Assembly (NCBI GenBank): GCA_964622315.1
Contig: CAZUOY010000004.1
Span: 2,064-66,063 of the forward strand
Reading direction: 5' to 3'
Origin: an uncultured Oscillospiraceae bacterium
GTDB taxonomy: Bacteria; Bacillota; Clostridia; Oscillospirales; Ruminococcaceae
DNA length: 64,000 nt
How positions within the stretch are numbered: the stretch's first letter is position 1; each line of letters starts with the position of its first letter. The position numbers and the translations under genes are program-made. The notes under the pieces are model-generated. The model ran no database searches and was not told the DNA's origin. It was given only the letters and a program-made list of their open reading frames with translations. Shown here piece after piece: positions 15,382 through 44,603 of this stretch.

Positions 15382-15430
15382 GGAAAACAAAGTAAGCACA
15401 GTATTCAACAACAATTTGGGAGGAAAAGAA

Positions 15431-18400
15431 ATGTTCAAGAAAGCGTTATCGACACTTCTCGCAGTGGCAATGGTGGTAACTATGCTGCCGATGAATGTAT
15501 TTGCTACCAGCGAAGAGCCTGTAGCGGAGCCCGCGATAGTTGAAACAGTTCCCGCGGAGCCTGTCGCAGAAGCCCCCAAGGCGGAGACACCCGCAGAGCC
15601 AGTAGCGGAAGCGCCTAAGGCAGACGTTCCCGAGGCGGAAGCGCCGGAGAGTGAAGACCCTGCAGGCGAAACGCTCGAGGAAGGCGAACTCGCAGGCGAA
15701 ACGCCCGAGGAAGGCGAACCCACAGGCGAAACGCCCGAGGAAGACGAACTCGCAGGCGAAACGCCCGAGGAAGACGAACTCGCAGGCGAAACACCCGAGA
15801 CTGAGAAGCCCGCTGAGGAGCCGACGGTCGAGGAAGAGCCTGTAGCGTTTTATGAGAACATTAATATAAACGGTACAAAGATAGAAATTAGCGCCGAAGC
15901 GGGAATTTTTCCGAACGGCACAACCGTCAATGTAGTGGAGGTAACCTCCGCGGTTCAAGGAGCTATTGAAGGCGCGGTTGACGGCGAAATCACCGCTATG
16001 CGTGCGTTCGATATAACCTTCTTTAACGCTAACGGAGAAGAAATTCAGCCTAACGGTAACGTGAACGTAAGCTTTAAGCTGAGCGTTGCGGATTTACCTG
16101 CGGCAGCGGCGGCGGATAAGACCGAGGTTTACCATATGGCCGACGTAAACGCTTCTCCCGAGAAGGTAGCGCAGACCTCAGCGTCGGACAGCGTCAGCAT
16201 TAACGTAAACAGCTTTTCAATCTACACTATTGCCGAGGTTTCACAAGCACAGAGAAAGCCGGGCGGCAATAACGACATTGAGATTAAAACATTTAAACTT
16301 GAAGCGAGCGCTGGCGAAACGATAGAACTTGTTTCTACACATCAAGGACCGACTACTGATAAAAAAGGCTGGAAGGTCGAAAGTGGCGCGTCTAATTTAA
16401 AGGGCGGTGTAACCGCTGGCGCCAATAAAAAAGTGGGCGGCAAAACGGTTGGAACGGCGAGCGTTACAATCAATGACAATGCCGATGCGGGAACGACTAT
16501 AGAAGTTGTTCGCGAGCGTCAAGGCGATAAAAACAATCAAGGATACAAAGAGACATTCATAATAACAGTAAAGGCGAAAACCCCCGAAACTCCTAAAACT
16601 GTTACAGCCAAATTCTACATTCATAAGATTGCTCAGGAAGATATTGACCAATTAGAAGCCTACGGCACAGCGCCGCAGAGTGATTCAAATTACTTCCCCT
16701 CGGCAAATAATGGTTTAGCAAAAGCTATAACGGTTCCCACCGATGAGGTTAGCAATTGGGGCAAGACCGACAACTATACTTGGAGAACCTGGATATTTAG
16801 CAGAGGAAGCAATATTGAGAAATGGATAGGAGACAACGCTCCTACGCTCAGTCAGTTTGCCAACACAGATGGCGTTCCCAATGACATTAACTGCAACGAC
16901 CCCAACCTTGAGGTTGTTTGGTACGTAATTAAGGACCAAAAGGACGGCTGGCACGTTGACGGCTATGTTCTTACTAAGTATACGATTAACTATGAGCTCA
17001 ACGGCGGAGCGCTGGCTGAGGGGGTAACGAACCCCACGGTCTACACCGCGAGCGACGCGTTTACGCTTAACAACCCGCAAAAGCCCGGATACACCTTCCT
17101 TGGCTGGACGGGAAGCAACGGAGCTGACGCAGAAACCTCTGTTTCCATAACAAGAGGAACCACGGGCAACAAGGAGTATACCGCGAACTGGGCGCCTTAT
17201 ACCTACACCGTTGAGTTTGACGGAAACGGCGGCGAAGGCACAATGGACGATATGTCCTTTAACTTTGACGAGGAAAAGACGCTCGATGAGAACGAGTTTG
17301 AGCGTAGCGGCTTTGCGTTTATCGGCTGGAGCACACAGCCGGACGGCGAAGTGGAATTCGAAGATGAAGAGTCGGTTAAAAATCTTTGCGACGAAAACGG
17401 CGGAACAGTAACTCTTTACGCTCAGTGGGAGCAGACAGAATATAAGGTAGATTACCAGTGGACGACGGACGCGCCGAGCGGTACAACAAAGCCCGGGGAT
17501 GACGTTGCGAACAGCGAGAACAGCTTTAAGGTTATCGTTGACGATAACTATAAGGAAAATCAAGTTGTTGTGGTAACCACCTATGGCATGTTTGGTTGGC
17601 AGACAGATAAGTATTATAAGTTCAGCGGCTGGAAGCTTAACGGAAACGTTGTAAGCGGCGAGCTCACTATTTCGAGCGACACAACGCTTACAGGCAGCTG
17701 GATTGAAGTAAGCTATCGCGATATAGTTTCACTGCAGTATTACGGAAACGGAAACGACGGCGGAAGCGCACCGGCGGAAAAGAGCTATTATGTAAAGGGC
17801 GCGAATGTTAAGGTTCTTGCGAATACTTATACCAAAAACGGCTATACGTTCGTAAAATGGAACGACAACAGCAACGGTAGAGGAAACTCTTACAACCCCG
17901 ACGGAACTATTACGCTTTACTCAAGCAAAACTCTTTATGCGCAGTGGGCACCTAACGGCTACACCGTGAAATTCAACGCTAACGGCGGCGAAGGCACAAT
18001 GAACGATATGTCCTTCAAGTTCAACGAGACCAAGAAGCTTACCGCTAATGCGTTTACCCGCACGGATTACAGATTTATTGGCTGGAGCACACAGGCAGAC
18101 GGAAACGTTGCTTACTCCAACGAAGCAAGGGTTAAGAACCTTACTAACGAAAAGGACGGCGTGGTTACGCTCTATGCTCAGTGGGAGCAGATACCTCCTA
18201 CGGTTACCTATTCATGGAGCGGAAATATTCCTACGGGCGTAAGTCTCCCGAGTTCGTCCGAGGCAACTAAAACGAATAACGGCTTCGAGCACAGCATTAA
18301 CACCTCCTACAACTCCAACTCGGTCAGAACGACCGTTGCCGGCAGATATACCTTCAGCGGCTGGAACACGGTAAGCGGCGGAACGATAAGCGGCGGCAAG

Positions 18401-20260
18401 GTTGTCGGAATAACCGATGATATTACAGTAAGCGGAACCTGGACCTTCACACCGTACGAATTTACAGTTAGATATTTCGGAAACGGCGGAAGCGGTGTAG
18501 TTACCGACACGAACACTTATCATTACGGTGACACGGTTACTCTGCTTGCAAACGGATTTAGCCGTGAAAATCATGAATTTGACGGCTGGACTATTAACGG
18601 AACTAAGTATGAACCGAACGACACCATCACAATTAAAGGAAACGTCAATGTGTACGCCGACTGGGAGTTCTTGGGTTATAGCGTAACCTACAACTGGGGA
18701 ACGGTTGCTCCCGCAGGCGAAACAAAGCCCGCTGACGGACGCACCTCCTACAGTTTGCCTTACGGTGAATACTTCGACTACGACACAAAATACACCAAGG
18801 GCTACACCGTTACCGACGAGACAGGCACATACGTCTTCAGCGGCTGGAGCATCTCGGGTGATTACTTCGGAATCGGAACGATATTCGATTGGTTCCATGG
18901 AACCAAGATTTGGGGAATCTCCAGCAACATTGCTATAACCGGCAGCTGGCAGTTCACACCTGAGGTTTACGACATCGTTTACAACCTCGATGGCGGAGCT
19001 TTAGAGGCTGGAAAATCGAATCCCACGACATACACTGTGAACGATGAATTTACGCTTGTCAATCCGCAGAAGGAAGGCTTTGCTTTCCTCGGCTGGACGG
19101 GAAGCAACGGAACAGACGCTGATACCGACGTTTCCATTACAAAGGGAACAACAGGAGACAAGGAGTATACAGCTAACTGGACTCCCAAGACTAACTCACG
19201 CTACACAGTTAACCACTATCTCCAGAACGCGGAGAATGATGAGTATACCTTTGATTCTTACGATTTACTCACCGGAACAACAAACACAGACACAGATGCA
19301 AAAGCCAAGGTGTTTGAGAACTTTATCGCGCAGGATATTGAAAATCAGAAGATTGAAGCTGACGGCTCAACTGTAGTGAATGTCTATTATGACCGCGAAA
19401 AGTTCGATGTAGTTTACATGGACGGCACGACCCAGCTCGGCGCTACTGAGAGCTACAAGTTCGGACAGAATGTAACAATCAGAGCGGCGGCTTCCAAGAG
19501 CGGCTACAACTTCAACGGTTGGTTTACAGAGGACGGTGAGGCAGCGAAGGATTTCGTTATGCCTACACAGAACGTGACAATTTACGCAAGATGGTCTGCA
19601 ATTCCGACACCTCCCGTGACACCTCCCGTAACACCGCCCACAACACCCCCCACAGTTATTCCTCCCATTACCCCGCCCCTTGCGCCTCCCGAGGACGTAT
19701 TTACCGTAACCTTCGTTGATTACGACGGTACAGTAATTCGCACCGGAACCTTTGAACTCGGCGACACGGTTTCCTTCCCCGCGGGTCCCTCAAGAGAGAA
19801 TTACGACTTTAGTGATTGGACCTTTGCGACTGGCACGGAGCTTGGCGTAGGCAACACGGTTCAGGGTGACGCAACCTATATGGCGAGCTACATGAGCACA
19901 ATGGACAGAACGATTAACGACCCGTCCATTCCTCTCGCAGACGGCGGCAACGGCTGGGCGATTCTCAACCTTATCCTCACAGTCATAACGGCGCTGACAA
20001 GCGTGCTTATGATAGTCGGCTACTTCACAAAGAAGAAGAACGGCAAGAAGGAAACGACTAAGAGCAAGACCGCAGCGAGATTTGGAACCCTTGTTCCCGC
20101 ACTCGGCGCGATAATCACCTTCATTCTCACAGAGAACATGAACAGCAAGATGATTTTCAGCGACAAGTACACGCTTCTTATGGCGGCAATCGCACTCCTT
20201 GGCGTAGCGGTTTCTGCCTTCGCGATTAGCGAAAAGAAGAATAAAGCAAAAGCAAAATAA
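15431..20260 (+). CDS. Giant cell-surface protein with multiple Listeria-Bacteroides (InlB B-type, Flg_new) repeats, acidic and Pro/Thr linkers and a C-terminal multi-TM anchor
   Basis: Signal peptide MFKKALSTLLAVAMVVTMLPMNVFA after a GGAGG RBS. Repeated modules Y.V.F..NGG.G.M......F......L..N.F.R.GY.F.GW........Y.....V.....D...LYAQW. TPPVTPPVTPPTTPP linker; three hydrophobic helices plus a K-rich end. Confidence 0.85.
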   Translation: MFKKALSTLLAVAMVVTMLPMNVFATSEEPVAEPAIVETVPAEPVAEAPKAETPAEPVAEAPKADVPEAEAPESEDPAGETLEEGELAGETPEEGEPTGETPEEDELAGETPEEDELAGETPETEKPAEEPTVEEEPVAFYENININGTKIEISAEAGIFPNGTTVNVVEVTSAVQGAIEGAVDGEITAMRAFDITFFNANGEEIQPNGNVNVSFKLSVADLPAAAAADKTEVYHMADVNASPEKVAQTSASDSVSINVNSFSIYTIAEVSQAQRKPGGNNDIEIKTFKLEASAGETIELVSTHQGPTTDKKGWKVESGASNLKGGVTAGANKKVGGKTVGTASVTINDNADAGTTIEVVRERQGDKNNQGYKETFIITVKAKTPETPKTVTAKFYIHKIAQEDIDQLEAYGTAPQSDSNYFPSANNGLAKAITVPTDEVSNWGKTDNYTWRTWIFSRGSNIEKWIGDNAPTLSQFANTDGVPNDINCNDPNLEVVWYVIKDQKDGWHVDGYVLTKYTINYELNGGALAEGVTNPTVYTASDAFTLNNPQKPGYTFLGWTGSNGADAETSVSITRGTTGNKEYTANWAPYTYTVEFDGNGGEGTMDDMSFNFDEEKTLDENEFERSGFAFIGWSTQPDGEVEFEDEESVKNLCDENGGTVTLYAQWEQTEYKVDYQWTTDAPSGTTKPGDDVANSENSFKVIVDDNYKENQVVVVTTYGMFGWQTDKYYKFSGWKLNGNVVSGELTISSDTTLTGSWIEVSYRDIVSLQYYGNGNDGGSAPAEKSYYVKGANVKVLANTYTKNGYTFVKWNDNSNGRGNSYNPDGTITLYSSKTLYAQWAPNGYTVKFNANGGEGTMNDMSFKFNETKKLTANAFTRTDYRFIGWSTQADGNVAYSNEARVKNLTNEKDGVVTLYAQWEQIPPTVTYSWSGNIPTGVSLPSSSEATKTNNGFEHSINTSYNSNSVRTTVAGRYTFSGWNTVSGGTISGGKVVGITDDITVSGTWTFTPYEFTVRYFGNGGSGVVTDTNTYHYGDTVTLLANGFSRENHEFDGWTINGTKYEPNDTITIKGNVNVYADWEFLGYSVTYNWGTVAPAGETKPADGRTSYSLPYGEYFDYDTKYTKGYTVTDETGTYVFSGWSISGDYFGIGTIFDWFHGTKIWGISSNIAITGSWQFTPEVYDIVYNLDGGALEAGKSNPTTYTVNDEFTLVNPQKEGFAFLGWTGSNGTDADTDVSITKGTTGDKEYTANWTPKTNSRYTVNHYLQNAENDEYTFDSYDLLTGTTNTDTDAKAKVFENFIAQDIENQKIEADGSTVVNVYYDREKFDVVYMDGTTQLGATESYKFGQNVTIRAAASKSGYNFNGWFTEDGEAAKDFVMPTQNVTIYARWSAIPTPPVTPPVTPPTTPPTVIPPITPPLAPPEDVFTVTFVDYDGTVIRTGTFELGDTVSFPAGPSRENYDFSDWTFATGTELGVGNTVQGDATYMASYMSTMDRTINDPSIPLADGGNGWAILNLILTVITALTSVLMIVGYFTKKKNGKKETTKSKTAARFGTLVPALGAIITFILTENMNSKMIFSDKYTLLMAAIALLGVAVSAFAISEKKNKAKAK
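15662..15800 (+). repeat. About 4.6 tandem copies of a 30-bp coding repeat (AGETPEEGEL decapeptide)
   Basis: GCAGGCGAAACGCCCGAGGAAGRCGAACYC units start at 15662, 15692, 15722, 15752 and 15782. Confidence 0.9.
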
Positions 20261-27042: not shown

Positions 27043-27234
27043 AAGGAAGGGCGCGTATGCGTCCTTCTTTTACAAATCATAGACGGAACAATTGCCGGGA
27101 ACGGTGAAAATACTTTATTTTTAAAAGCAATGCACGTATATCAAGGAGGGCTGTTACCGACATATCGTTAGTCTTTGTATATTCTTTTAAAAACCGCAGA
27201 CAATATTACCAAAACACAACAAAGGCGGTAGATT

Positions 27235-27414
27235 ATGAGAGCGACAGGTATAGTAAGAAGGATAGACGACCTCGGACGGGTGGTAATACCTAAGGAGATA
27301 CGGCGCACGATGCGGATTCGCGAGGGCGAGCCGCTTCTGACAACATTGACAAGGGAAGAAAGCTTCTGCATAGCCATCAATAATTTCTACCGCCGCTGCG
27401 TAAAGACGAGCTGA
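27235..27414 (+). pseudogene. spoVT: spoVT 5' segment (AbrB-type DNA-binding domain, codons 1-34) fused to 25 element-encoded codons
   Basis: Translation MRATGIVRRIDDLGRVVIPKEIRRTMRIREGEPL then LTTLTREESFCIAINNFYRRCVKTS-stop. Below the ORF-track length cutoff; found by reading the + strand under the spurious minus ORF 27187..27525. Confidence 0.85.
27323..27336 (+). repeat. attL core (14-bp direct repeat)
   Basis: AGGGCGAGCCGCTT, in the codons for EGEPL of spoVT. Confidence 0.8.
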
Positions 27415-27526
27415 AAAGCGCCTGAAATAGGGCATATACATAAAATTGCACAAGTTTACAAGAACCGTTAAGCCGTCTACCCATTCTCGTTCACAAATGT
27501 GAAAGATGGCTTGTTGTTTATTCAAT

Positions 27527-27555
27527 TTGACAATAAAATTTAATTTGAGTATACT
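27527..27555 (+). promoter_or_regulatory. Near-consensus sigma-A promoter driving the NTase/HTH pair
   Basis: TTGACA - 17 nt - TATACT. Confidence 0.6.
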
Positions 27556-27564
27556 AACGATAGA

Positions 27565-28116
27565 TTGATTAATACTATTAATGAAAAGAGTAAAATGATG
27601 CTTGGAAGAGATGAATTGATAGAAAGACTGAAACGATTTGATGAAGATATTTCATTAGCATATGAAAATATAGATGATTTCAATGTTTATATTGTTGGCG
27701 GAAGTGCGCTCATTCTAATGAAATATATCCTTCGCGGTACGCATGATATCGATATACTCAACAAGATGAACTCTGAAATAGTTGAGATTATGGAGAAGTA
27801 CGATATAAACAACAGAGTGTCGGCGTATATTGACAGCTTTGCGGATGACTACAAAAAGCGGGCGGTGGAAATACCAATAGAGGGGTGTAAGGTTAAGTAT
27901 TTTGCCCTTTCGCTTGAAGACCTCGTAATTTCAAAGCTATCCTCAAGCAGACGAACCGATGAAGAGGATATTACAAGCGACGGTGTAATTGAAAACATTG
28001 ATTGGGACACTTTAGATGAAATAGCAAAGACAACAAGAGAAGGTATGCTTAACGACAGAATTGTTGAAGAATTCAATGTGCGATATGAAAACTATGTAAG
28101 GAGGTTTAGAAAATGA
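27565..28116 (+). CDS. Nucleotidyltransferase-fold protein (DUF6036 / MNT-like)
   Basis: VYIVGGSALILMKY..RGTHDIDIL fits the G[GS]-x(9-13)-D-x-D pol-beta NTase motif. A later LEDLVISKLSSSRRTDEEDI block is present. The start may be the internal MML. Confidence 0.5.
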   Translation: MINTINEKSKMMLGRDELIERLKRFDEDISLAYENIDDFNVYIVGGSALILMKYILRGTHDIDILNKMNSEIVEIMEKYDINNRVSAYIDSFADDYKKRAVEIPIEGCKVKYFALSLEDLVISKLSSSRRTDEEDITSDGVIENIDWDTLDEIAKTTREGMLNDRIVEEFNVRYENYVRRFRK

Positions 28117-28640
28117 GACGGCTCACATTCAAGGGCTTTTTGCGACGCTATTTACAGGAGCTCTCTTTAGAGAATACCAGTTCGGTTCATAAGCTTCTTA
28201 TTGAAGCCGAATCGAACAACGCCCGTTTGTTTGAGCCGCTGCTGATATATATCGCTTTGTCGTTTGATAATGACAGACTGAATTCGATTCTTAAAAAAAG
28301 CGAGACACTGAACGATGAATATTCGCGCTACTTCAAAACAGTGTTAAGAGAAAATTTGGAGGAGTACCTCTCAAATTCAAACGATGTTCCGAAGGAGTAT
28401 ACGAAGATTTACAGAAGCTATCTCAGCGTAAGAAACCGCGTCGAGAGCGACAACGACACGAAAGCGAGGATGCGGACAAAAATACTGAAGCTGATAGAAG
28501 ATAAGGGTTACAGTGACTATAGAGTATACAAAAAGCTAAAGATAAACCCGGGTAATTACAGCGCCTTCTTTAAGCAGGGCAAGCTTGACCGGTTGAGCCT
28601 TGATAAGACGAGAGAGGTTTTAAGCTTCGTAAATCACTGA
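28113..28640 (+). CDS. Hypothetical partner protein with C-terminal HTH-like segment
   Basis: ATGA overlap with the NTase gene. C-terminal YRVYKKLKINPGNYSAFFKQGKLDRLSLDKTREVL looks XRE-like. Confidence 0.4.
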   Translation: MRRLTFKGFLRRYLQELSLENTSSVHKLLIEAESNNARLFEPLLIYIALSFDNDRLNSILKKSETLNDEYSRYFKTVLRENLEEYLSNSNDVPKEYTKIYRSYLSVRNRVESDNDTKARMRTKILKLIEDKGYSDYRVYKKLKINPGNYSAFFKQGKLDRLSLDKTREVLSFVNH

Positions 28641-28696
28641 GGAACCAAATTAGCGAACAGTCATAAAAAAATATAATGCGAACGACAGATACAGGT

Positions 28697-28734
28697 AAAA
28701 ATGGCAGGGCCAAAAGAGACCTTGCCATTTTCTT
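28697..28734. terminator. Bidirectional hairpin terminator between convergent genes
   Basis: AATGGCAGGG-ccaaaagaga-CCTTGCCATT flanked by A and T runs. Confidence 0.6.
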
Positions 28735-28868
28735 AATATCAAAATAATTAATGACCTCCAAAATCACCGTGCTGTTATTCTCGCGGTCAGCGAGCGCTAA
28801 CCCAAACAGCCAAGGGAGAAGTTTACTTCAGAATAACGGTATTTGTGGTTTCAACAATATCAGAGCTA

Positions 28869-29963
28869 TTAATGGTTATCTATGTGTTGGAGTCCTTCAC
28901 ACAAAATGTTCTGTGCGGCGTTTTGGTCGCGGTCGCATTCAAAACCGCAATTCGGGCAAAAGTATACCCTCTGAGAAAGAGAAAAAGTTGGAAGGATGTT
29001 TCCGCAAGCAGAGCATCGCTTTGTGCTCGGAAAGTACTGCGAACACTTAACAAGAATGCCGCCGGTGTCCTTTTGCGCATTGATTATTTTTTTCTCAAAA
29101 CTAACAGGGGCGTTATCGCGCATTTTAGCAGAGAGTGATGGGTTGGTTTCTTGCATTTTGTGAAAATTTAAAGTCTCTGTGCAAATAACATCGTGAGTTT
29201 CCGCGAGTCTCCGAGCTTCTTTGAATTGCCAATCTTTGCGCTGATTCTTAATATGTTGCTCAAGCTTATCGATTTTCCTGAAGGTTTCATTCCAGCGACG
29301 ACTACCTTTTTTCTTATGAGATAGAAGTTCATAAAGAGCATTAAGTCTTTCTCGCTCCGCCGCTCGGAAATGAGGACAGTCTCCCGACATGCCATTAGAG
29401 TCCACGTAAAGACCATCCTGTTTATAATCAAGCCCTATAGCAGTTTTCGTATTAATTGTTTTTTTCGGCGGGTCGTTATCGAAGCAGACAAGGACCGAAA
29501 TATAGTACTGCTTTAAAATCTTTCGATGACAAAGAGTAACCTTAACGATTTTTCCGTCTGTGGGGATAGGACGATGCAAATTGATTTCAACGTCGCCGAT
29601 TCCTTCAAGCTGTATATTTTCTTCGTCTATTAATGAGTACGTAAGGACATAGGATTTGAGTGTCCTCCATTGACCACGCTTATACAGGTAGTGTTTTCCA
29701 AACTTCTCCTCGCTTTTAATAGATTTGACGATATCTTTAATGATAAATTTTGCTGTGATTTCATCCACATCAAATCGGTCGTCAACGTTAAATTCCTCGA
29801 CCCATTGAATACGCTCTGGGAATTCTAATCCGCAATCCCGACAAGCGATAGCGAAGTCAATTATTGTATTGTATAAGAAATCCGCAGCTTTGAATCTCGC
29901 TGAGATAAGATTTTCCTGCTCCTTGGTGGGGAAAATTCTGTATTCAAAGTTTCTATAAAACAT
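28869..29963 (-). CDS. tnpB: TnpB (IS200/IS605-family OrfB, RuvC-like RNA-guided nuclease), no adjacent tnpA
   Basis: N-terminus FYRNFEYRIFPTKEQ. RuvC triad candidates IGLDYK, ICTETLNF and CDRDQNAAQNI. Zinc ribbon CSACG..CPNCG. ATG 29963 follows a GGAGGT RBS. Confidence 0.85.
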   Translation of the reverse strand: MFYRNFEYRIFPTKEQENLISARFKAADFLYNTIIDFAIACRDCGLEFPERIQWVEEFNVDDRFDVDEITAKFIIKDIVKSIKSEEKFGKHYLYKRGQWRTLKSYVLTYSLIDEENIQLEGIGDVEINLHRPIPTDGKIVKVTLCHRKILKQYYISVLVCFDNDPPKKTINTKTAIGLDYKQDGLYVDSNGMSGDCPHFRAAERERLNALYELLSHKKKGSRRWNETFRKIDKLEQHIKNQRKDWQFKEARRLAETHDVICTETLNFHKMQETNPSLSAKMRDNAPVSFEKKIINAQKDTGGILVKCSQYFPSTKRCSACGNILPTFSLSQRVYFCPNCGFECDRDQNAAQNILCEGLQHIDNH

Positions 29964-30075
29964 AATTACCTCCGCAAAAATGTTATACGAATAATCATCT
30001 TGAGAGAATAATAACAAAAATGTGACGTTGTGTCAATACATTTGTTCAAAATATGATTATATTCGTCACAATCGC

Positions 30076-30104
30076 TTGAGAATTGTAACCGTTTTTGTTA
30101 GAAT
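30076..30104 (+). promoter_or_regulatory. Sigma-A-type promoter for the XRE/hsdM unit
   Basis: TTGAGA - 17 nt - TAGAAT. Confidence 0.5.
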
Positions 30105-30135
30105 AGTAATATAAATCATTAAAGAGGAAAGAAAT

Positions 30136-30366
30136 ATGTCTGTTTGTAATAAAATTAGAGCTCTAATGAACTTAACAGGAAAAAAGACACAGGAGGTGGC
30201 AGATAGTCTTGGGATATCTCCACAAGGGCTTAGAAATAAGCTATCACGGGATAGCTTTTCGGCGGAAGACTTAATTAAAATTTCTGCATGTTTAGGCTGT
30301 GAGTTGTCGATAGCGATGGACCAAAATATAAAAATCACTTTGGATTTGACAGATTTGGAGAAGTAA
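30136..30366 (+). CDS. XRE-family helix-turn-helix protein
   Basis: KIRALMNLTGKKTQEVADSLGISPQGLRNKLSRD is a typical HTH_3 pattern; 76 aa. Confidence 0.75.
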   Translation: MSVCNKIRALMNLTGKKTQEVADSLGISPQGLRNKLSRDSFSAEDLIKISACLGCELSIAMDQNIKITLDLTDLEK

Positions 30367-30459
30367 AACGTTCAATACAATTAATTAAAACGTTGAATAG
30401 TTCAGCGGTTCATGAGTAATAGTACTAAACTGGAATTATTGCGCAAGGAAGGGCAGACG

Positions 30460-31830
30460 ATGAATAAGCAACAACTCGCAGCAAAAATATGGGAATCCGC
30501 AAATAAAATGCGTTCCAAGATTGAGGCAAATGAGTATAAAGACTATATTCTGGGTTTTATTTTTTATAAATTCCTGTCTGATAAAGAGGTTAAATATCTA
30601 AAGAGTATCGGATACACAGACAGTTCGATAAAACAAGTAGCAGAAGATATCCCGGAAGTAGTAGAGAATGTGCAAAATAACATAGGATACTTTATTGCAT
30701 ATGATAATCTTTTTTCAACATGGCTTGAGATAGGCGCAGATTTTAATGTATCAAATGTTCGTGATGCACTAGCAGCTTTTAATAGGCTTATCAGTTCATC
30801 GCATAAGAAGGTATTTGAAAAGATTTTCGATACTCTGCAAACTGGTCTGTCTAAACTTGGCGATACTTCTGGGACACAGACGAAGTCTATTAGTGACTTA
30901 ATACACCTAATCAAAGACATTCCAATGGATGGAAGACAAGACTACGATGTTCTTGGATTCATCTATGAATATCTAATCTCCAACTTTGCTGCCAATGCAG
31001 GAAAGAAAGCCGGAGAGTTCTACACTCCGCACGAAGTGTCGTTGCTGATGTCGGAAATAGTAGCTAATCACTTAAAGGAAAGGTCAGAAATTAAGATTTA
31101 TGACCCTACCAGCGGGTCGGGGTCATTGCTTATTAATATAGGCAAATGTATAGCAAAATACATGGGCGACGGTGACAGAATAAAGTATTATGCGCAAGAG
31201 CTTAAAGAAAACACATATAACTTGACACGCATGAATTTAATTATGCGTGGAATAATTCCTTCTAATGTTGTTACAAGAAACGGTGACACTCTGGAAGAAG
31301 ACTGGCCATATTTTGATGAAAGTGACCCTGTAGGTACTTATGACCCGTTATATGTTGATGCCGTTGTTTCAAATCCCCCCTATTCTCAAAACTGGAATCC
31401 CGGAGATAAGGAGAACGACCCAAGATATAAGCGTTATGGTGTCGCACCTAAGGGAAAAGCAGATTACGCATTTCTGTTGCATGACCTGTACCACATTAAA
31501 CCTGATGGAATTATGACCATTGTTCTTCCGCATGGAGTGTTGTTCCGCGGTGGCGAAGAAGCTGCCATTCGTAAGAATTTGATTGAGAACAACAATATAG
31601 ATACTATAATTGGTTTGCCTGCGAATATTTTCTTTGGTACCGGCATACCCACAATTATCATGGTATTAAGACAAATCCGTAGCAACAATGATGTGCTTAT
31701 AATTGATGCTTCAAAAGGATTTGAAAAGGTAGGAAAGAACAATAAGTTACGAGCTTCGGACATTAAAAGAGTTGTTGATGTTGTAACGAAGAGAGAAACT
31801 GTTGATAAGTACAATAACAAGCGATTTTAG
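30460..31830 (+). CDS. hsdM: Type I restriction-modification methyltransferase subunit HsdM, 3'-truncated and orphan (no hsdS/hsdR)
   Basis: HsdM_N block LAAKIWESANKMRS..EYKDYILGFIFYKFLSD, AdoMet motif IYDPTSGSGSLL, catalytic SNPPYS. Ends ..ETVDKYNNKRF where family members normally continue about 40-50 aa (..NDYNLNI.RYV). Confidence 0.75.
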   Translation: MNKQQLAAKIWESANKMRSKIEANEYKDYILGFIFYKFLSDKEVKYLKSIGYTDSSIKQVAEDIPEVVENVQNNIGYFIAYDNLFSTWLEIGADFNVSNVRDALAAFNRLISSSHKKVFEKIFDTLQTGLSKLGDTSGTQTKSISDLIHLIKDIPMDGRQDYDVLGFIYEYLISNFAANAGKKAGEFYTPHEVSLLMSEIVANHLKERSEIKIYDPTSGSGSLLINIGKCIAKYMGDGDRIKYYAQELKENTYNLTRMNLIMRGIIPSNVVTRNGDTLEEDWPYFDESDPVGTYDPLYVDAVVSNPPYSQNWNPGDKENDPRYKRYGVAPKGKADYAFLLHDLYHIKPDGIMTIVLPHGVLFRGGEEAAIRKNLIENNNIDTIIGLPANIFFGTGIPTIIMVLRQIRSNNDVLIIDASKGFEKVGKNNKLRASDIKRVVDVVTKRETVDKYNNKRF

Positions 31831-31926
31831 TTGTGAAACACACTATTGGGTGGATTTAATACAGTGGCGGTAAGAAATTAAGTCGCCAGTTCTAAATTAA
31901 TAAAGCGTTACGCAACTTCGTTTTAA

Positions 31927-32018
31927 CGTAACACTAAAAAATAAAACTGTAACACAAATGAGCTTTAACGTTACAGTAAAAAATTTTTGTGTTACATAAA
32001 ATGCTTTTTGCGTAACAC
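31927..32018. repeat. Phased array of five YGTAACAC-type motifs (both orientations) at ~21-bp spacing
   Basis: CGTAACAC 31927, TGTAACAC 31948, CGTTACAG (reverse, partial) 31969, GTGTTACA (reverse) 31989, CGTAACAC 32011. A GCGTTACGC palindrome lies at 31905. Confidence 0.7.
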
Positions 32019-32551
32019 TTATTTTCTAAATATGATTTTACGAGGGCGTTATTTAATAGCTTTTAGCAAAAACAATTTGACGCGTCCCCGAAAATCACCT
32101 AAACTTTAGTTGTTAGAAGAAAAGAAAATCAATTTTGATACGCAAATGCGGTGCCAGTAATGGTGCCGCTTTTCTTTTTCTTCTTTTTACATATATAAGT
32201 CCTTTAGGTTTCAATGAAAAAAAGATGATGGGAAAGTAGGTAAGAAAAAGCATACAGCATCGGCTCGGCAAACCGGTGCTGTGTAGCCTCTGTGGAAAAT
32301 ACAGGGGAGCCAGCTATTCGGTTATTCGCCTTGGTTTGTAGCGAATAAACGGATAGAGAATATGTTCCTTGGTTTTTGGGATGTAGAACCGGCTACGGAG
32401 TAGCGAAAAACGCCCAACCGGTGCGGTTTCCAGCCATAGTGCTGTTGCAACCGTCCATACTTAACAGGCAATTCAATAACGAAAAATACGACCCGAGGGC
32501 GATAAAATCGCCGATTCGGTTTCTTCAGAACACCTAAAGGAGGAAAGTAGC

Positions 32552-33551
32552 ATGAAGAAAGCAAAAACGAACGAAGAATATCTGAGGGAGGCTAAGGATT
32601 CCCGCTTCCGCGAACTCAACAAAATTGGTACATCGAAAAAGCAGGCACGCGATGAGTACAACGAATGGCGGAAGGAGGAGGTGAGAAAAAACGGTAAGCC
32701 GATACCGACAGATTATGCGCCATCTCCGTACATCCACGGTCTTGGTACGCTAAAGCAGTACAATGCAATTTCAGAACATTATATTACTTACATAGTAGAG
32801 AATCATCCCGAAGCTTACAAGCTGTCGTATTGCTTTAAGCATGGATTTGCACACGAATATATTCAGACCCTTATTGATAAAGGTCAGAGCGCTTGGAGTA
32901 TAGCCCGTGCCCGCGCGGCTCTTGCGAAGCTGCATGGAAAAACAGGTCCCGAAATCCATAATGACATCCCTCGCCGCGAAGCTGAAGACATCACTAAAGG
33001 CAGAATGTCAGAACTTGAATATGCTGCCGCATTGAATGAGTATGGCGACATGGTTGCATTTGCACGCTGTGTCGGAGTTAGAAGTGCCACATTCGTCACG
33101 CTGACGCCGGATTGTTTTAAAACAGACAACGAAGGGAACCTTTTTCTCCACCTTGACGGTAAGCTTAATAATACCAAGGGGGGGGAAAACCTTCGATGTA
33201 GAAATTATTCCGACAAATCAGAAGTACGTCAGAGACTATATTTCGAAGCATAACCACGATGAACTGCTTTTTCCTGAAGTGCCGAGCCACTTAAATCTGC
33301 ATGGAGTTCGTGCATTCTTCGCAAAGGACTTCTACAATTTCTATGCGCGCGATATTGATGAAATAAAAAACAATAGGACAAAATATAAAGGAAGTATGAG
33401 AAGTGCAATCTACACTCGGAGAATTGAAGGCTTGAAGCCGAGTGAGCAGCCTTCTTATGATTTTGAGGCACTGTTGAGGATGTCAAGGTCGCTTGGTCAC
33501 GAGAGGGTGTGCACCTCAATTGTGCATTATCTCTACAACGTTGACGATTAG
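32552..33551 (+). pseudogene. Tyrosine recombinase/integrase interrupted by a +1 frameshift in a G8 homopolymer (33178-33185)
   Basis: ORFs 32552..33253 and 33153..33551 overlap. Removing one G gives ..LHLDGKLNNTKGGKTFDVEIIP... Catalytic signature CVGVRSAT (Arg), LHGVRAFF (H-x-x-R), LGHER..IVHYL (His, Tyr). Confidence 0.75.
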
Positions 33552-33586
33552 CTTAATATGAAGCATCTATATTGATGATTCAATTA

Positions 33587-33595
33587 TGCTATAAT
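33587..33595 (+). promoter_or_regulatory. Extended -10 promoter element (TGcTATAAT) upstream of the orphan two-gene cassette
   Basis: TGCTATAAT read directly, followed by the inverted repeat ATATCACT-caataca-GTGATAT. Confidence 0.4.
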
Positions 33596-33889
33596 ATGTA
33601 TATCACTCAATACAGTGATATGAAAGGTTACGAATTTTGTAGATGGGACAATGTCAACGAAGTCTTGTTTGATGGGACACACATTGAAATAGAACAACAC
33701 GAGTGTCTTGATTGAAGAGGCAGAAGCTTTCATGAGTAAATGTTAAGTACAAACTCAATACTGCTTGGATGCAAGTTATGTGGGTATAGTTACAAACGAC
33801 TAAATCACAAAAACATTAAGGTAGGGAATGTAGATAGGATGCGTTCTCAACATTAACCATTTGAGATTATCCCTCACTAAGGAGAAATT

Positions 33890-34870
33890 ATGAATAATAG
33901 TAAGGACGACACATTAAACTCTTTTCTTGATAGGTCTGAAAAAAAGATAAAAACGTTTAAATATAGTGTAACTGATAAACAATGGAATGAACTTGTAGGG
34001 TTTTATAATTACCTTACTTTTTGGGTTAATGGTTATCAACAGTTGCTTTATTATCTCCGAGAAAGACAGAATCTTGTTGAATTACATCGCACTGGTATAC
34101 CTATCACCTTATATATACATGATAAATACCACGAGGCAACAGCAGAGGTAATAAGTCAGTATCGTACTTTTTTTGAACATAGTAAGCAATTGCTAAATGC
34201 TTTTGTAGTTTTGCTCGGTCATATAATTGCAGACCATGAATTCAACAGAGTAAAAACCAGTAGTTTCGGAAAATGTATAAATTCATTTAGTAATGTTTCA
34301 GAATTCAATAATAAGTGTTTGAATAAACTTAAGGCATTATTTACTAAAGTTGGAAAGTTGATTGACAATACTATCTGTGAATATCGTGATAAACATGTTG
34401 AGCACGCAAAACTGTTAGGAGTAGGCGTAGCTCGAACATTCGGAGACTCGATGGTGTTAATTCACGATAAAGATGAAACACCTCCAATGTTATATCCCAT
34501 AGAAAAGGTAAAAGGTGTTTCGCGAATGTCAATATTCATTGATTACATAGGGATTCAGAGTACAAATGGAGGTACAGACTATATCTATCATATTAAGTCA
34601 AACAAAAATAAAGGAGATAGCGTTAGAACTGGTGAATGCATTGGACCCGCTTATGTAGATAGTTCTGGTATACACTTTGAAGAATATGGAAAGCACTATC
34701 ATGAATTTTCGTCAGAGAGTCGCAAGGTGCTCTATCCAGTTGCTTCACCAATACATAAAGGAACCACTTCACCGAAATCCGATGATTCTTTTGATATAAT
34801 GTGTTGTTTTATAGAAGAATGTTTGGGTATACTTTCTGAGTATGTCAAATCCTCCTCTGACAAAGAATAG
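33890..34870 (+). CDS. Hypothetical protein A of orphan cassette (helical N half, beta-rich C half)
   Basis: Strong RBS AAGGAGAAATT before the ATG; AT-rich codon usage. The only motif-like element is YRDKHVEH (R-x5-H) at aa 165-172. Confidence 0.6.
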   Translation: MNNSKDDTLNSFLDRSEKKIKTFKYSVTDKQWNELVGFYNYLTFWVNGYQQLLYYLRERQNLVELHRTGIPITLYIHDKYHEATAEVISQYRTFFEHSKQLLNAFVVLLGHIIADHEFNRVKTSSFGKCINSFSNVSEFNNKCLNKLKALFTKVGKLIDNTICEYRDKHVEHAKLLGVGVARTFGDSMVLIHDKDETPPMLYPIEKVKGVSRMSIFIDYIGIQSTNGGTDYIYHIKSNKNKGDSVRTGECIGPAYVDSSGIHFEEYGKHYHEFSSESRKVLYPVASPIHKGTTSPKSDDSFDIMCCFIEECLGILSEYVKSSSDKE

Positions 34871-34967
34871 TTTCTCCAAGCATTGTGTCCGAATGTCTAT
34901 TAATCTATATACAAGAAGCGAAATGTTATAGAAGAGTAAAAAATCAGTTTAACAGAAAGGGAAATTT

Positions 34968-36095
34968 ATGAAAAGCAACGAATTAATTGAAGGGTTTGCT
35001 AATTGTTTCATCTGTATTAGTTATAAATTGCATGATGATACTTACGGGGATTATCGACATTCAACAGCTTGTACTTTTACCAAATATGACCGGAATATTA
35101 ACATGTTTCCATCAGTTGAATCAACTAAAAGCAAAATGGAAATTGAAAAACTCTTGGACCATTTATACTCTATTCTTCCTGCGTTAAGAATAATTATAGA
35201 TAGAGATATTTACTTGCAAAGAGTTTTGCATTCCGTTGATACTATTTGGAGAAGCATCTTTAACGGTTTAAAAAACGCTTTTGATAAAGATATTTTAAAT
35301 GATGTTTCTATTATGTTCCCCTTTCTAAGAGCACATGGTTTGGGTGGGCATCCGTTGCTGTCTTTTCCATTGATTGTAAATTATCGAACGGGAGAACAAG
35401 AATTATGGGTAATTGAACCAATTCCAACAATTATTGACAATTCTCGCGAAAATGGAACTGAAGAAGCTATGTCTTTTGATACATTAGAAGACTACACGAT
35501 AAATTGTGACACATTAATGAGAACATCTCGTTTTATAGATTCATCTATATACAGTTACCCTCTGGATAATCCAAATGCTGACTGTAAGCATGTGCAGATT
35601 CATGAATCCTATATTTTGAAAAAACTATTAGAACACAGTTTTAAAATAGAATTAGGTGACGATAGAGTTAAAAAATGTGTAACAACCCAAGGCTTAGTTA
35701 CACCCACAAGAATGAAGAAATCATCGAGTATTACAATAACTTTCAATTCTGAAACTATCTTGATGGGAATTAACCAAGTGGAGTTTGATGCCTACCGACA
35801 AAAAGCAATAAAAGCCATCGTAGAAACCTGCATATATCGCAGCGTTTATTTTGGATTTATGGAAACTGAACAAATCACTCAATCTGAAAGTACTTCAATT
35901 CGAATTTACGAACAACTTAACAGAGCACGTTTTCTGAAGAAAATAGCTAAACCAAATTCTGTGGTTTTACCTCCAGCAAGCATAGAAAGCATAAATAGTT
36001 ATCTCCAAATAGAACAAATGAAAAATGTGCGCAATGCTTCTGAAATTGCAGGCACTCTTTTGGGAGCTGCATATAATCAAATTGAACCACCTTAA
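34968..36095 (+). CDS. Hypothetical protein B of orphan cassette
   Basis: RBS AAAGGGAAATTT before the ATG. Same strand and composition as protein A. No recognisable motif. Confidence 0.6.
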   Translation: MKSNELIEGFANCFICISYKLHDDTYGDYRHSTACTFTKYDRNINMFPSVESTKSKMEIEKLLDHLYSILPALRIIIDRDIYLQRVLHSVDTIWRSIFNGLKNAFDKDILNDVSIMFPFLRAHGLGGHPLLSFPLIVNYRTGEQELWVIEPIPTIIDNSRENGTEEAMSFDTLEDYTINCDTLMRTSRFIDSSIYSYPLDNPNADCKHVQIHESYILKKLLEHSFKIELGDDRVKKCVTTQGLVTPTRMKKSSSITITFNSETILMGINQVEFDAYRQKAIKAIVETCIYRSVYFGFMETEQITQSESTSIRIYEQLNRARFLKKIAKPNSVVLPPASIESINSYLQIEQMKNVRNASEIAGTLLGAAYNQIEPP

Positions 36096-36126
36096 CATAT
36101 CAATTATCTGAGGGTAACAGCAATCC

Positions 36127-36714
36127 TTACGCCAACTCCTTCTCAAAGCTTGGCATCTCCGCCCGTATCATCTTCCTCGCTTTCGTGAGGTCACCCGATA
36201 CCCACTCGTCGAGCTTGTCGGAGGGGATAATCACGGGCATACGGTGGTGGACGTCCTTCGTCGATTCGTTCGCCTCGGTCGTGAGTATCACGAATCTGCG
36301 CTCGCCGTCGAACTCATCCCATACACCCGCCATATAGATAACATCGTCCTTTGGTAGAGTAAAGAGGTATTTATCCTTCTTGCTCTTTCCCGTATCCTTC
36401 CATTCAAAAAAGCCCGTCGCAGGTACGACGCATCTGTTGTTCTCGAATCCGTTCGAGAACATTTTCTTTTCTGTGATGCTTTCACTGCGAGCGTTAACGA
36501 TAACGCCCTTGCCCGTGAAGTGGGGATAGCCCCAAGAGATAAGCTCAGCCGTACATTCCTTGCCGTCAGAGACGAGCACAGGTGCCTTGTCGGTGGGGTA
36601 AATCTCACCCTCTTTGACGGTGGCTTTCCCGTGATACTTCTCGTTAACCTCTTTGATTATCTGCATATATTCCTCGCGGTCATCGTCCGACGAAAACATA
36701 TATCTCCCGCACAT
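36127..36714 (-). CDS. SOS response-associated peptidase (SRAP/YedK family)
   Basis: N-terminal MCGRY with catalytic Cys2; PATGFFEW and HHRMPVI blocks. Confidence 0.85.
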   Translation of the reverse strand: MCGRYMFSSDDDREEYMQIIKEVNEKYHGKATVKEGEIYPTDKAPVLVSDGKECTAELISWGYPHFTGKGVIVNARSESITEKKMFSNGFENNRCVVPATGFFEWKDTGKSKKDKYLFTLPKDDVIYMAGVWDEFDGERRFVILTTEANESTKDVHHRMPVIIPSDKLDEWVSGDLTKARKMIRAEMPSFEKELA

Positions 36715-36775
36715 AGTGTCGCTCCTTCAATAAATATGTCTAAAGTATTCCCGAAATATTTAGAAATATTTCCTG

Positions 36776-36804
36776 TTTACATTTTACCACGGCGGATATA
36801 TAAT
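36776..36804 (+). promoter_or_regulatory. Promoter of the Y-family polymerase gene
   Basis: TTTACA - 17 nt - TATAAT. Confidence 0.55.
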
Positions 36805-36819
36805 TGAAACACAAAAAAA

Positions 36820-36831
36820 GAACAAATGTTC
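36820..36831. promoter_or_regulatory. LexA (Cheo) box GAAC-N4-GTTC
   Basis: aGAACAAATGTTCt lies 15 nt downstream of the -10. It matches the Firmicute LexA operator consensus CGAACnnnnGTTCG at the core. Confidence 0.7.
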
Positions 36832-36849
36832 TCACTGGAGCTGATTTTT

Positions 36850-38091
36850 TTGGAAAGGACAATTTTGCATTGTGATTTAAATGGGTTTTACGCTTCGGTG
36901 GAATGTTTTTACCACCCCGAGCTGAGACCTTTTCCTGTTGCTGTGGCGGGAGACCCCGAACAGCGGCATGGAATTATTCTTGCCAAAAACAGCGTGGCAA
37001 AGAAGTACAACATCAAGACGGGTGAGGCGATATGGCAGGCGAAACGCAAGTGCCCGAATCTAATCTGCCTTACTCCAAACTATGACCTATATGCAAAGCA
37101 CTCGCAGTTGGCAAGGGAGATTTATCAGGAGTATTCCGACAAGGTAGAAAGCTTCGGACCTGACGAGTGTTGGCTTGACGCTACGGGCGGAGTAGCTTCT
37201 TTTTCTGATGGCAAGCTTCTTGCCGACGAGATAAGGGAACGAATCAAGGCAGAGCTTGGGATAACCGCTTCGGTAGGAGTGAGCTTCAATAAGATATTCG
37301 CGAAGCTCGGCTCGGACTACAGAAAGCCAGACGCGACGACGGTAATCTCCGAGCAGAACTTCAAGGAAATCGTCTGGCCGTTGAGCGCGAACGATATGAT
37401 ATATGTCGGTCCCTCTACGGCGAGAAAGCTTGAGCGGTTCGCCATTCATACTCTTGGAGATGTAGCGAACGCCGATGTGGAGTTTCTTAAAAACAGGCTC
37501 GGCAAAGCGGGGGTTGTCCTGTGGCAATGGGCGAACGGTAAGGACTATTCACAGGTGCGGCAGTATCAAGCTTCGCCCGAAATCAAGAGCATAGGCAACA
37601 GCACTACCGCACCGCACGACCTCGCGACGGATAACGATATACGAATTACACTTAGACTTTTGAGCGAAAGTGTGGCGTCAAGACTTCGTGACGGCAACTA
37701 CCGCTGTCGGACGGTGCAGGTATCTATGCGGCAGACCGACCTATTCTATTACGAACGACAGATGGCGTTACCGTACCCGACAGCAGAGAGCGAAAGCATC
37801 TACGAGGCGGCGTACAGGCTTTTATGCAAGCACTCGTTCGAGGAGAAGCCGCTTCGCTCGGTTGGAGTGCGGGGAATGAACCTCGTGGACGATTCGGTCA
37901 CTCAGCTTAGTTTGTATCCTGAAATTCAGGCAATGCAGCAACAGGAGGAGCTTGAGCGGGCGATAGATTCACTCCGTAACCGCTTTGGCTTTCAGATAGT
38001 CAAACGCGGGCTTATGATGACCGACAACGCTCTATCTGCGCTTGACGCGAAGGGCGACCACACGGTGCACCCCGAGAGCTATTTTCGTTAA
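36850..38091 (+). CDS. dinB: Y-family DNA polymerase (DinB/ImpB-MucB-SamB family)
   Basis: ILHCDLNGFYASVE, SVGVSFNKIFAKLGSDYRKPD and little-finger region. TTG 36850 with GGAG 9 nt upstream is preferred because ATG 36826 lies inside the LexA box. Confidence 0.85.
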   Translation: MERTILHCDLNGFYASVECFYHPELRPFPVAVAGDPEQRHGIILAKNSVAKKYNIKTGEAIWQAKRKCPNLICLTPNYDLYAKHSQLAREIYQEYSDKVESFGPDECWLDATGGVASFSDGKLLADEIRERIKAELGITASVGVSFNKIFAKLGSDYRKPDATTVISEQNFKEIVWPLSANDMIYVGPSTARKLERFAIHTLGDVANADVEFLKNRLGKAGVVLWQWANGKDYSQVRQYQASPEIKSIGNSTTAPHDLATDNDIRITLRLLSESVASRLRDGNYRCRTVQVSMRQTDLFYYERQMALPYPTAESESIYEAAYRLLCKHSFEEKPLRSVGVRGMNLVDDSVTQLSLYPEIQAMQQQEELERAIDSLRNRFGFQIVKRGLMMTDNALSALDAKGDHTVHPESYFR

Positions 38092-38106
38092 AAAGGAGGC
38101 GGTAAA

Positions 38107-38343
38107 ATGGATTACAAAATCTATGTGAGAGTTAAGTCGGAAACCGACACGGACGGAAATATCGTTCCGACGCATATCATTTGGTCAGATGACCGAGAGT
38201 TCCCGATAGATAGAGTAATTGATGTCAGAAAAGCCGCCAGCACAAAAGCGGGCGGTCTTGGGCTTCGATATACCGTTCGTATTGACAATAAGGAGCGATT
38301 CCTCTATTACGAAGCTCCACGCTGGTTTGTTGAGAGGAAGTAG
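38107..38343 (+). CDS. Small conserved-looking protein following the polymerase gene
   Basis: RBS AGGAGGCGG; 78 aa; ends RYTVRIDNKERFLYYEAPRWFVE. Polymerase-accessory role is inferred from position only. Confidence 0.5.
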   Translation: MDYKIYVRVKSETDTDGNIVPTHIIWSDDREFPIDRVIDVRKAASTKAGGLGLRYTVRIDNKERFLYYEAPRWFVERK

Positions 38344-38347
38344 TAGT

Positions 38348-38530
38348 ATGAACAGATACTTTGTACGAGATATGACCGAGCTTTATCGGCAACACACCAA
38401 CGCAGACCTATACGAGCAACAGATTGATACGCTTAAATGCCTGCTTCAAAGCGGCGCAATAACAAAAGAGCAGTATGAGCATAGCGAGAGGGTATTGAAG
38501 CAAAATATGGAAGCAGTGGTTTCGTTATAA
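38348..38530 (+). CDS. Small hypothetical protein (60 aa)
   Basis: ATG 38348 directly follows the upstream stop; helical, no motif. Confidence 0.35.
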   Translation: MNRYFVRDMTELYRQHTNADLYEQQIDTLKCLLQSGAITKEQYEHSERVLKQNMEAVVSL

Positions 38531-38703
38531 GCGGTGATAGATATATAATAATAAGTTCTGCGTAGCGAATTGCTCCTTATTGACAAAAAACGACAAAAAC
38601 AAACCCATATGTTGTTATTTTGTTTAAAAACGGTGTATAATGGGGATGTTCTTGTAATCGCAATTAAGATTCAGCGGATAATAAAGTCAAAGAGGAAAGT
38701 ATA

Positions 38704-43222: not shown

Positions 43223-43253
43223 ACTACACATAAAATTAATAGGAGGGTTTACC

Positions 43254-44557: not shown

Positions 44558-44603
44558 ACAAACGAAGCTAAACAACAAACAACATTGAAAGGAGGGCGCT
44601 GAA

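Follow-up and report, generated by a model that had tools for sequence, protein, structure and literature searches.

What does it mean that spoVT, a gene of the forespore, is cut in two by a recombinase-bearing island, when known intervening elements are located in mother-cell genes and excised in the mother cell only (PMC4191935)? The question is raised by the window analysed here, a stretch of 64,000 nucleotides from an uncultured Oscillospiraceae bacterium (GenBank assembly GCA_964622315.1, contig CAZUOY010000004.1, positions 2,064 to 66,063 of the forward strand), within which all positions are numbered. The inserted DNA is probably an ordinary site-specific mobile island, driven by a large serine recombinase (LSR), whose chromosomal attachment site (attB) is a conserved stretch of a forespore gene and whose side effect is a reversible sporulation-off state.

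The 5' part of spoVT extends from an ATG at 27235 to 27336 and comprises 34 codons (MRATGIVRRIDDLGRVVIPKEIRRTMRIREGEPL). Its product belongs to the Pfam AbrB/MazE N-domain type (E=7e-7) and shares 78% identity with B. subtilis SpoVT over residues 1-41 (tblastn, E=8e-16). Past codon 34, the open reading frame (ORF) departs from spoVT and reaches a stop at 27414. The remaining 142 codons lie on the same strand 19 kb downstream (46347-46775) and encode SpoVT_C (PF15714, E=6e-25; tblastn, E=2e-23). An exact 14-bp direct repeat, AGGGCGAGCCGCTT, was located by script at 27323-27336 and 46333-46346, and in-silico removal of one repeat copy together with all DNA between the copies yielded an uninterrupted SpoVT of 176 amino acids. 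A sporulation ORF is cut here at codon 34 with short direct repeats at the bounds, as in intervening elements, and precise excision would give a full-length ORF, as the joining and the empty site of a close relative (L086, below) agree. The first-pass annotation had placed an interrupted spoVT start at 27177-27336, and the tblastn and Pfam matches, the repeats, the rejoined protein and the empty site all bear this out. The features on which the argument depends are as follows.

27177-27205, plus strand: spoVT promoter of the forespore (sigma-F/G-like) type, GTATAT-N12-GCAGACAATA (weight matrix, 20.3 bits)
27235-27336, plus strand: 5' fragment of spoVT, 34 codons, AbrB-type DNA-binding domain (tblastn, Pfam, about 97% nucleotide identity to the intact L086 gene)
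27323-27336: attL core, the left copy of the 14-bp repeat AGGGCGAGCCGCTT (exact repeat)
27337-46346: integrated island, 19,010 bp (repeats, composition, L086 empty site)
27337-27414, plus strand: left end of the island, consisting of the attP right arm CTGACAACATTGACA (27337-27351) and 25 codons with a stop, here fused to the spoVT stump
43677-43883, plus strand: conserved 68-amino-acid partner of the LSR, candidate recombination directionality factor (RDF) (tblastx against L082)
44522-44550, plus strand: LSR promoter of the sigma-A type with an extended -10 region, TTGAAA-N17-(TGA)TACAAT, that is TTGAAA-N17-TGATACAAT (read from the sequence)
44604-46775, plus strand: LSR ORF as integrated, 581 recombinase codons (to 46346) and 142 spoVT codons in frame, 723 amino acids (Pfam, reconstruction)
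46316-46346: attP left arm TGTCAATGTTATCAG (46316-46330) and attR core repeat (46333-46346)
46347-46775, plus strand: 3' part of spoVT, GAF-like SpoVT_C domain, native stop intact (Pfam, E=6e-25)

With its AbrB-type N-domain and SpoVT_C, the target is a genuine spoVT orthologue. An uninterrupted spoVT containing exactly the predicted attB (...CGCGAGGGCGAGCCGCTT|GAGAT...) and followed by galK was found in the close relative L086 (a 2,990-bp Logan contig), and spoVT is likewise intact in a second relative, L085, whose SpoVT is 86% identical. In the comparison of occupied and empty spoVT sites in related genomes, proposed in the first-pass annotation, the site is empty in both relatives and polymorphic in the host species of a sister element described below. 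Relative to the intact L086 gene, the ratio of nonsynonymous to synonymous substitutions (dN/dS) of the split spoVT is 0.069 (0.098 for the adjacent galK), with no frameshift or stop; the split gene shows no sign of decay. The synonymous divergence from L086 is uneven (dS 0.12 in the first 34 codons, 0.91 in the other 142), and the low value at the 5' end makes recent recombination or gene conversion there possible. Hyperconservation of attB at the nucleotide level across the clade was considered and found no support, as the majority frequency at third positions was 0.54 in codons 1-34 versus 0.50 in codons 35-60 (80 genomes). Since there is no third-position excess, the attB site is apparently conserved because the SpoVT protein is conserved there.

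Beside the split gene, between spoVT and galK (46982-48798), lie a blaI-like repressor gene and a gene for a BlaR1-type sensor (Peptidase_M56) that ends in an M23 peptidase domain, an unusual architecture. In L085 and L086, galK follows spoVT directly; the blaI/BlaR1 genes look like a second, independent insertion.

To characterize the spoVT promoter, a two-block weight matrix was trained on 77 upstream regions of 160 nt, each belonging to an intact spoVT gene in a species-representative genome of the Oscillospirales. The motif GTATAA-N12-TACA(A/G)ATAATA occurred in 69 of the 77 regions, mostly 61-70 nt before the ATG. The window's copy (27177-27205) scored 20.3 bits with this matrix, inside the training range (median 23.1), and no other site on the two strands of the 64 kb scored higher; it had earlier been described as only loosely sigma-G/F-like, an assessment that is too cautious for the best-scoring, clade-conserved site. 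The B. subtilis sigma-F/sigma-G consensus reads GYATA / GHATR ... CATnnTA / GGnnAnAHTR. Judged by sequence, the clade-conserved GTATA...ATAATA promoter fits this consensus, not that of sigma-A, and is devoid of the ATA/AC -35 element of sigma-E/K promoters. In C. difficile, spoVT is sigma-F/sigma-G dependent, and a mutant forms no heat-resistant spores (PMC3789822). Of the two hallmarks of known intervening elements, a mother-cell target and excision confined to the mother cell (PMC4191935), the first is therefore missing, given the promoter type and the forespore expression of the C. difficile gene, and the contrast with mother-cell elements drawn in the first-pass annotation stands. Because the target is a forespore regulator, needed in the spore-forming cell itself, the family must either switch sporulation off in its carriers or persist by a different strategy. 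A full-text literature search (spoVT with intervening element, recombinase, integrase or prophage) returned no description of a spoVT-interrupting element, and spoVT is not mentioned in the main text of a large LSR survey (PMC10083194).

The recombinase ORF (44604-46346) abuts attR at the edge of the island. It contains no stop ahead of attR and reads on to the stop of spoVT itself, giving a protein with Resolvase, Recombinase and Zn_ribbon_recom domains followed by SpoVT_C (Pfam). Reconstruction of the excised form gave an LSR of 606 amino acids that ends in ...VISKGEPL-LTTLTREESFCIAINNFYRRCVKTS, with its last 25 codons contributed by the left end of the island. The best relative of the LSR in the PDB is SprA/YokA of SPbeta (E=1e-15), and a distant relationship to TnpX was detected (N-domain, E=2e-6). 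In the reconstructed attP, imperfect inverted arms (TGTCAATGTTATCAG / CTGACAACATTGACA) surround the core, and the site lies inside the LSR gene, 25 codons before its stop. Integration therefore swaps C-termini: the LSR gains the GAF-like domain of SpoVT, and the SpoVT stump gains the LSR tail. Tails homologous to that of the window's LSR were found after the junction in L082 and at the ends of the native-form LSRs P0244, P0253, P0255, P0264 and L109. The junction motifs VNV(I/V) and (L/V)TTL(T/S) were rejected as evidence for a functional LSR tail, being translations of the palindromic attP arms (GTCAATGTT / AACATTGAC); beyond these translations, the tails share weak similarity (F/Y-C-x-A). 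The LSR::SpoVT_C 'fusion proteins' are integration artefacts of a split gene and not a new domain architecture. Annotations of metagenome-assembled genomes at NCBI give such ORFs the name 'stage V sporulation T C-terminal domain-containing protein'.

The design of the LSR promoter recurs upstream of the LSR in L082, L088, L090 and L092. Comparison of positions 44540-44560 of the window with L082 (9945-9965), L088 (9955-9975) and L092 (9928-9945) shows that its -10 region is similar to the motif of the attP arms, CAATGTT(A/G)T. The region reads GATACAATATTGTATAC in the window, where it is itself palindromic (TACAATATTGTA), and TGTTACAATGTT in other lineages. From this resemblance, the LSR might bind and autoregulate its own promoter.

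A search with the 723-amino-acid ORF returned 7,999 relatives. The best 120 are 54-57% identical to it and 728-763 amino acids long, and all 120 show the same Resolvase, Recombinase and Zn_ribbon domains with read-through into SpoVT_C. Clustering at 90% identity divides the family into at least 120 protein clusters, and at 50% identity several lineages are distinguished; representatives at the latter level include three more full-length fusion lineages (P0241, P0242 and P0243; 47-52% identical) and several fragments. The LSR of the L090 lineage is 49% identical to that of the window, the main family 57%. At least four or five LSR lineages from gut and rumen Oscillospirales thus occupy the same spoVT codon, always with the junction ...VNV(I/V)x(E/G/K)G(D/E)PL|EI(F/Y)T.... 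Divergent LSR clusters at one conserved site in a single gene family, as seen here, are the mark of single-target LSRs as defined in PMC10083194.

When the 120 proteins were split at the junction, the recombinase parts had a median identity of 87%, many exceeding 99%, and the host-derived SpoVT tails a median of 52% (minimum 30%). Some recombinases with more than 99% identity come from hosts whose tails share about 30%. In 2,391 pairs, the LSR parts are more than 95% identical, with tails down to 30%, and across the 120 proteins the two sets of distances are uncorrelated (Mantel r=0.03, p=0.26). Near-identical elements are thus present in spoVT of very different hosts, which indicates, at the level of sequence comparison, that the family has spread horizontally in recent times, unlike skin. 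The window's island has a GC content of 0.31-0.46 (flanks about 0.47-0.53) and contains no capsid, tail, terminase, packaging or lysis genes (Pfam, PHROGs); it is not a prophage, nor does it have the look of a skin-like element passed on by vertical descent.

Its relatives differ widely in content. The sister island L082 measures roughly 11 kb (about 11.2 kb, with the attL junction near 633 and the attR junction near 11786) and carries, in this order, the spoVT stump, TnpV, a 213-amino-acid ORF, EndoU, DUF4417, a restriction-modification pair, a Schlafen/AlbA_2 ATPase, small ORFs including RepA_N, and LSR::SpoVT_C. Other samples with a fusion protein identical to that of L082 contain a different restriction-modification module. 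NACHT and TIR proteins are encoded in L088, and a Mob_Pre relaxase, a primase-helicase, Fic and RhuM in L097 (IMG/VR). L092, with genes for nrdD, dUTPase and endolysins, is the genome of a true phage and contains an intact attP and a related LSR that has its native tail. TnpV is present in L082 and L104-L108; neither TnpV nor Mob_Pre was detected in the window's island with Pfam. The RepA_N protein of the sister island (L104-L108; L082, 8983-9339) has 118 amino acids; should this protein allow replication, the excised island could be maintained like a plasmid, as an episome, and immediate reintegration would not be needed. The family can be described as phage-derived, LSR-driven mobile elements, comprising small defence islands, mobilizable elements and true phages, with the SpoVT stretch ..R-I-R/K-E-G-D/E-P-L|E-I.. 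as attB. Two GenBank records, L090 (MT836658.1) and L091 (MT839487.1), were deposited as 'UNVERIFIED: Bacteriophage sp.' from human faeces. They were rejected as phage or circular forms: MT836658 is a host contig (recN, argR, NAD kinase, tlyA) with an integrated copy, including the LSR::spoVT junction.

The states of the sister system were followed by exact sequence look-up of three proteins built from L082, namely the SpoVT expected after excision, the free-form LSR and the attL chimera. Intact reconstituted SpoVT (P0393, 'Eubacterium sp.') was found on at least 1000 contigs, the largest of 1.1 Mb; 119 contigs carry the attL chimera and 32 the attR fusion (P0035). The free-form LSR (P0408, 619 amino acids) was recovered in 36 blocks, all on contigs of at most 12.5 kb, five of which (gut-metagenome assemblies of 10.3-12.5 kb) are circular permutations of the island without host flanks (...RepA_N - partner - LSR (native tail) - TnpV - 213-aa ORF - EndoU...). 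Because the attB, attL, attR and attP forms are all present in public assemblies, the sister insertion is polymorphic within the species, the empty site is far commoner and the element also occurs off the chromosome. Two scans of JGI metagenomes for attP gave 0 matches and then 1 match.

Three components only are common to all lineages: the LSR, the tail-encoding left end and the partner ORF. In L082, L088, L090 and the phage L092, a homologue of the partner (roughly 70 amino acids) is encoded immediately before the LSR. The protein has no Pfam, PHROG or PDB relative, and a word-indexed homology search was uninformative; by position and conservation, it is a natural RDF candidate. The sequence GAATA-N17-CAATAATT lies upstream of the partner gene in the window and in L088, and by eye is absent from L082, L090 and L092. 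No sigma factor was assigned to the partner promoter; there was no matrix match above 10 bits, and GAATA-N17-CAATAATT could equally include a weak sigma-A -10 region.

LSRs in general integrate without cofactors and excise only in the presence of an RDF (PMC3783163). For the mobile island favoured here, the LSR alone would integrate the element (attP x attB), and the LSR together with the 68-amino-acid partner as directionality factor would excise it (attL x attR), restoring spoVT exactly. In the integrated state the host would be without SpoVT and, judging from C. difficile, spore maturation should be blocked; the insertion would act as a reversible off-switch for spore maturation. The island would persist through vegetative lineages in which it is not excised, LSR-driven reintegration and horizontal transfer, and not through excision restricted to the mother cell. 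Of the original interpretation, the genuine spoVT target and the forespore-type promoter hold, but the skin-like developmental framing does not, as the family evidence is that of an actively mobile island. The paradox raised there, an element cured from the germline at every sporulation, dissolves once mother-cell logic is no longer required, given the uncorrelated distances, the within-species polymorphism and the free attP forms of the sister element.

Several observations count against this account. The attP-form contigs show no terminal overlaps and could be tandem or plasmid-like forms instead of fresh excision products. The excised form, empty site and reconstituted protein of the window organism itself are absent from the collections, an absence that means little for an LSR cluster with a single member; the activity of this one copy is predicted from its sequence. 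The RDF role of the 68-amino-acid protein is read solely from conserved synteny, its AlphaFold model has a pLDDT (predicted local distance difference test) score of 72, and Foldseek gave no match in the PDB at E<=0.001. Upstream of the partner gene in the window, L082 and L088, the spoVT-promoter matrix gave no match above 10 bits. Finally, the cargo of the island looks degraded in part, with hsdM truncated, a TnpB gene inserted and the gene pair at 32552-33551 possibly frameshifted; the island may be losing its mobility.

An alternative that keeps the developmental logic is a programmed germline switch, in which the partner/RDF is turned on in the forespore (sigma-F/G), the island excises, spoVT is expressed, the circle is kept in the spore and the sigma-A-driven LSR reintegrates it at germination, an 'active lysogeny' for the germline. 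Such a cycle would make use of the forespore-type promoter of the target, of a conserved sigma-A promoter of the LSR that would work at outgrowth, and of an LSR chemistry in which the RDF is needed only for excision (PMC3783163). One and the same LSR::SpoVT_C allele is present in several samples, which by their accession series come from at least two studies, with cargo varying in situ; this suggests that the element is carried stably instead of being lost in every generation. The GAATA-N17-CAATAATT sequence in the window and L088 could be added on the same side. Yet the missing matrix match upstream of the partner gene extends to every lineage scored, the GAATA sequence is itself missing from L082 and L090 and might equally represent a weak -10 region of the sigma-A type, and an empty site that is much commoner within one species fits ordinary mobile insertion. 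Positive support for the switch comes down to its logic and the sigma-A promoter of the LSR; the idea is attractive, but we regard it as unlikely. In its full form, it would constitute the first intervening-element system operating in the forespore, with excision there, the circle carried in the dormant spore, reinsertion at germination and the C-terminal swap of the LSR (native 25-residue tail versus the GAF-like domain of SpoVT) serving as a sensor of the integrated or free state, and to this we give a slighter chance still.

The insertion might instead be a dead end, spoVT having been inactivated in a host that forms no spores or immature ones, as in the loss of sporulation by host-adapted gut Firmicutes, and the island decaying and no longer excising. 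The degraded cargo (hsdM ending at 453 of 857, no hsdS/R, the TnpB insertion) and the absence of an excised or empty form of the window organism from the collections can be read in this way, and the C. difficile spoVT mutant (PMC3789822) indicates that disruption would matter. However, the LSR ORF, the promoter ahead of it and the partner ORF are intact, as are the two att cores and the two attP arms, the spoVT halves have accumulated neither a stop nor a frameshift at a dN/dS of 0.069, and sister elements are polymorphic and present as free attP forms. A dead end thus seems doubtful. A neutral insertion, with a second intact spoVT elsewhere in the genome supplying the function, is very improbable, as no second spoVT or abrB homologue is present within the 64-kb window, the best 80 spoVT loci from species-representative genomes (a set that does not include the window's own genome) are all intact and each has a different genome accession prefix, which fits a single close copy in each genome, and the interrupted copy occupies the same syntenic position (spoVT-galK) as the intact gene of L085 and L086.

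In its anatomy, the favoured mobile island belongs to the class of skin in sigK, SPbeta in spsM, vfbin, vrin, gin in gerE and yin in yabG, although the hallmark of a mother-cell target fails. As in that class, a sporulation gene is split by an LSR element that is bounded by short direct repeats and has its recombinase at the edge, beside the 3' part of the gene; the ORF would be restored by precise excision, a small neighbour is the likely RDF, and SprA is the best solved relative of the LSR. The spoVT family differs in that it targets a forespore gene, is horizontally mobile and polymorphic instead of vertically fixed, and has attP inside the recombinase ORF; in addition, the candidate RDF showed no promoter of the sigma-E/K type. 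The clostridial mobilizable transposons Tn4451/Tn4453 (TnpX, TnpV, TnpZ) are small, LSR-driven elements with a circular intermediate. The sister elements resemble them in carrying TnpV (L082, L104-L108) or Mob_Pre (L097), in having a free form, and in that expression or structure of the recombinase differs between the integrated and circular states. In contrast, the window's island lacks TnpV and Mob_Pre, its LSR is remote from TnpX, the spoVT family is single-site and not multi-target, and its state-dependent feature is a C-terminal swap, not a junction promoter. In Listeria, the comK prophage interrupts a regulator gene and excises reversibly without lysis (active lysogeny). Here, too, a regulator is interrupted and excision could switch the gene on, but the element in the window is not a phage and its reversibility is predicted from sequence. 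Mycobacteriophages with integration-dependent immunity have attP inside a phage ORF, and integration alters the C-terminus of the encoded protein. The spoVT family shares the location of attP in a coding sequence of the element and the state-dependent C-terminus; the affected ORF, however, is the serine recombinase, and its new end is a folded host domain, SpoVT_C.

A common mobile island of this type may create reversible spoVT-null variants with non-maturing spores in abundant gut and rumen Oscillospirales, which bear on transmission and on the loss of sporulation in gut Firmicutes. The attB/attP pairs of the family also provide ready specificity data for LSR engineering.

The cargo between the left end of the island and the partner gene includes the following genes.

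27565-28640, plus strand: DUF6036 nucleotidyltransferase (27565-28116) and helix-turn-helix (HTH) protein (28113-28640) (Pfam)
28869-30017, minus strand: IS605-family TnpB (OrfB_IS605 and Cas12f1-like TNB), a secondary insertion (Pfam)
30136-31830, plus strand: CI-like HTH protein (30136-30366) and truncated type I methyltransferase HsdM (30412-31830), without HsdS/HsdR (Pfam)
36127-38091: SRAP peptidase (36127-36714, minus strand) and divergent Y-family DinB/IMS polymerase (36826-38091, plus strand) (Pfam)
38704-40509, plus strand: OLD/AriA/GajA-like ATPase-Toprim defence protein (Pfam AAA_15; PADLOC AriA 2e-20, Old 3e-20, GajA 6e-18)
41496-42884, plus strand: ATPase_2 and DUF234 protein, candidate defence family PDC-S27 (Pfam; PADLOC PDC-S27 5e-66)

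A YbjQ protein and several ORFs without any family are also encoded. The PADLOC MTase_I match of HsdM covers profile positions 1-453 of 857, and the TnpB gene has no adjacent TnpA. Two large ORFs of low GC content (about 0.33; 33890-34870 and 34968-36095) had no match in Pfam, PHROGs or PADLOC. The pair at 32552-33551 consists of ORFs of 233 and 132 amino acids that overlap at 33153-33253 and have no family match; they look like one frameshifted gene. SRAP (YedK-like) and the Y-family polymerase form a DNA-damage-tolerance pair with a GC content (0.46-0.52) above that of the rest of the island. Outside the island and unrelated to it, positions 15359-20260 encode a predicted cell-surface protein of 1,633 amino acids with many internal repeats and a C-terminal membrane anchor, surrounded by glycoside hydrolase and esterase genes.

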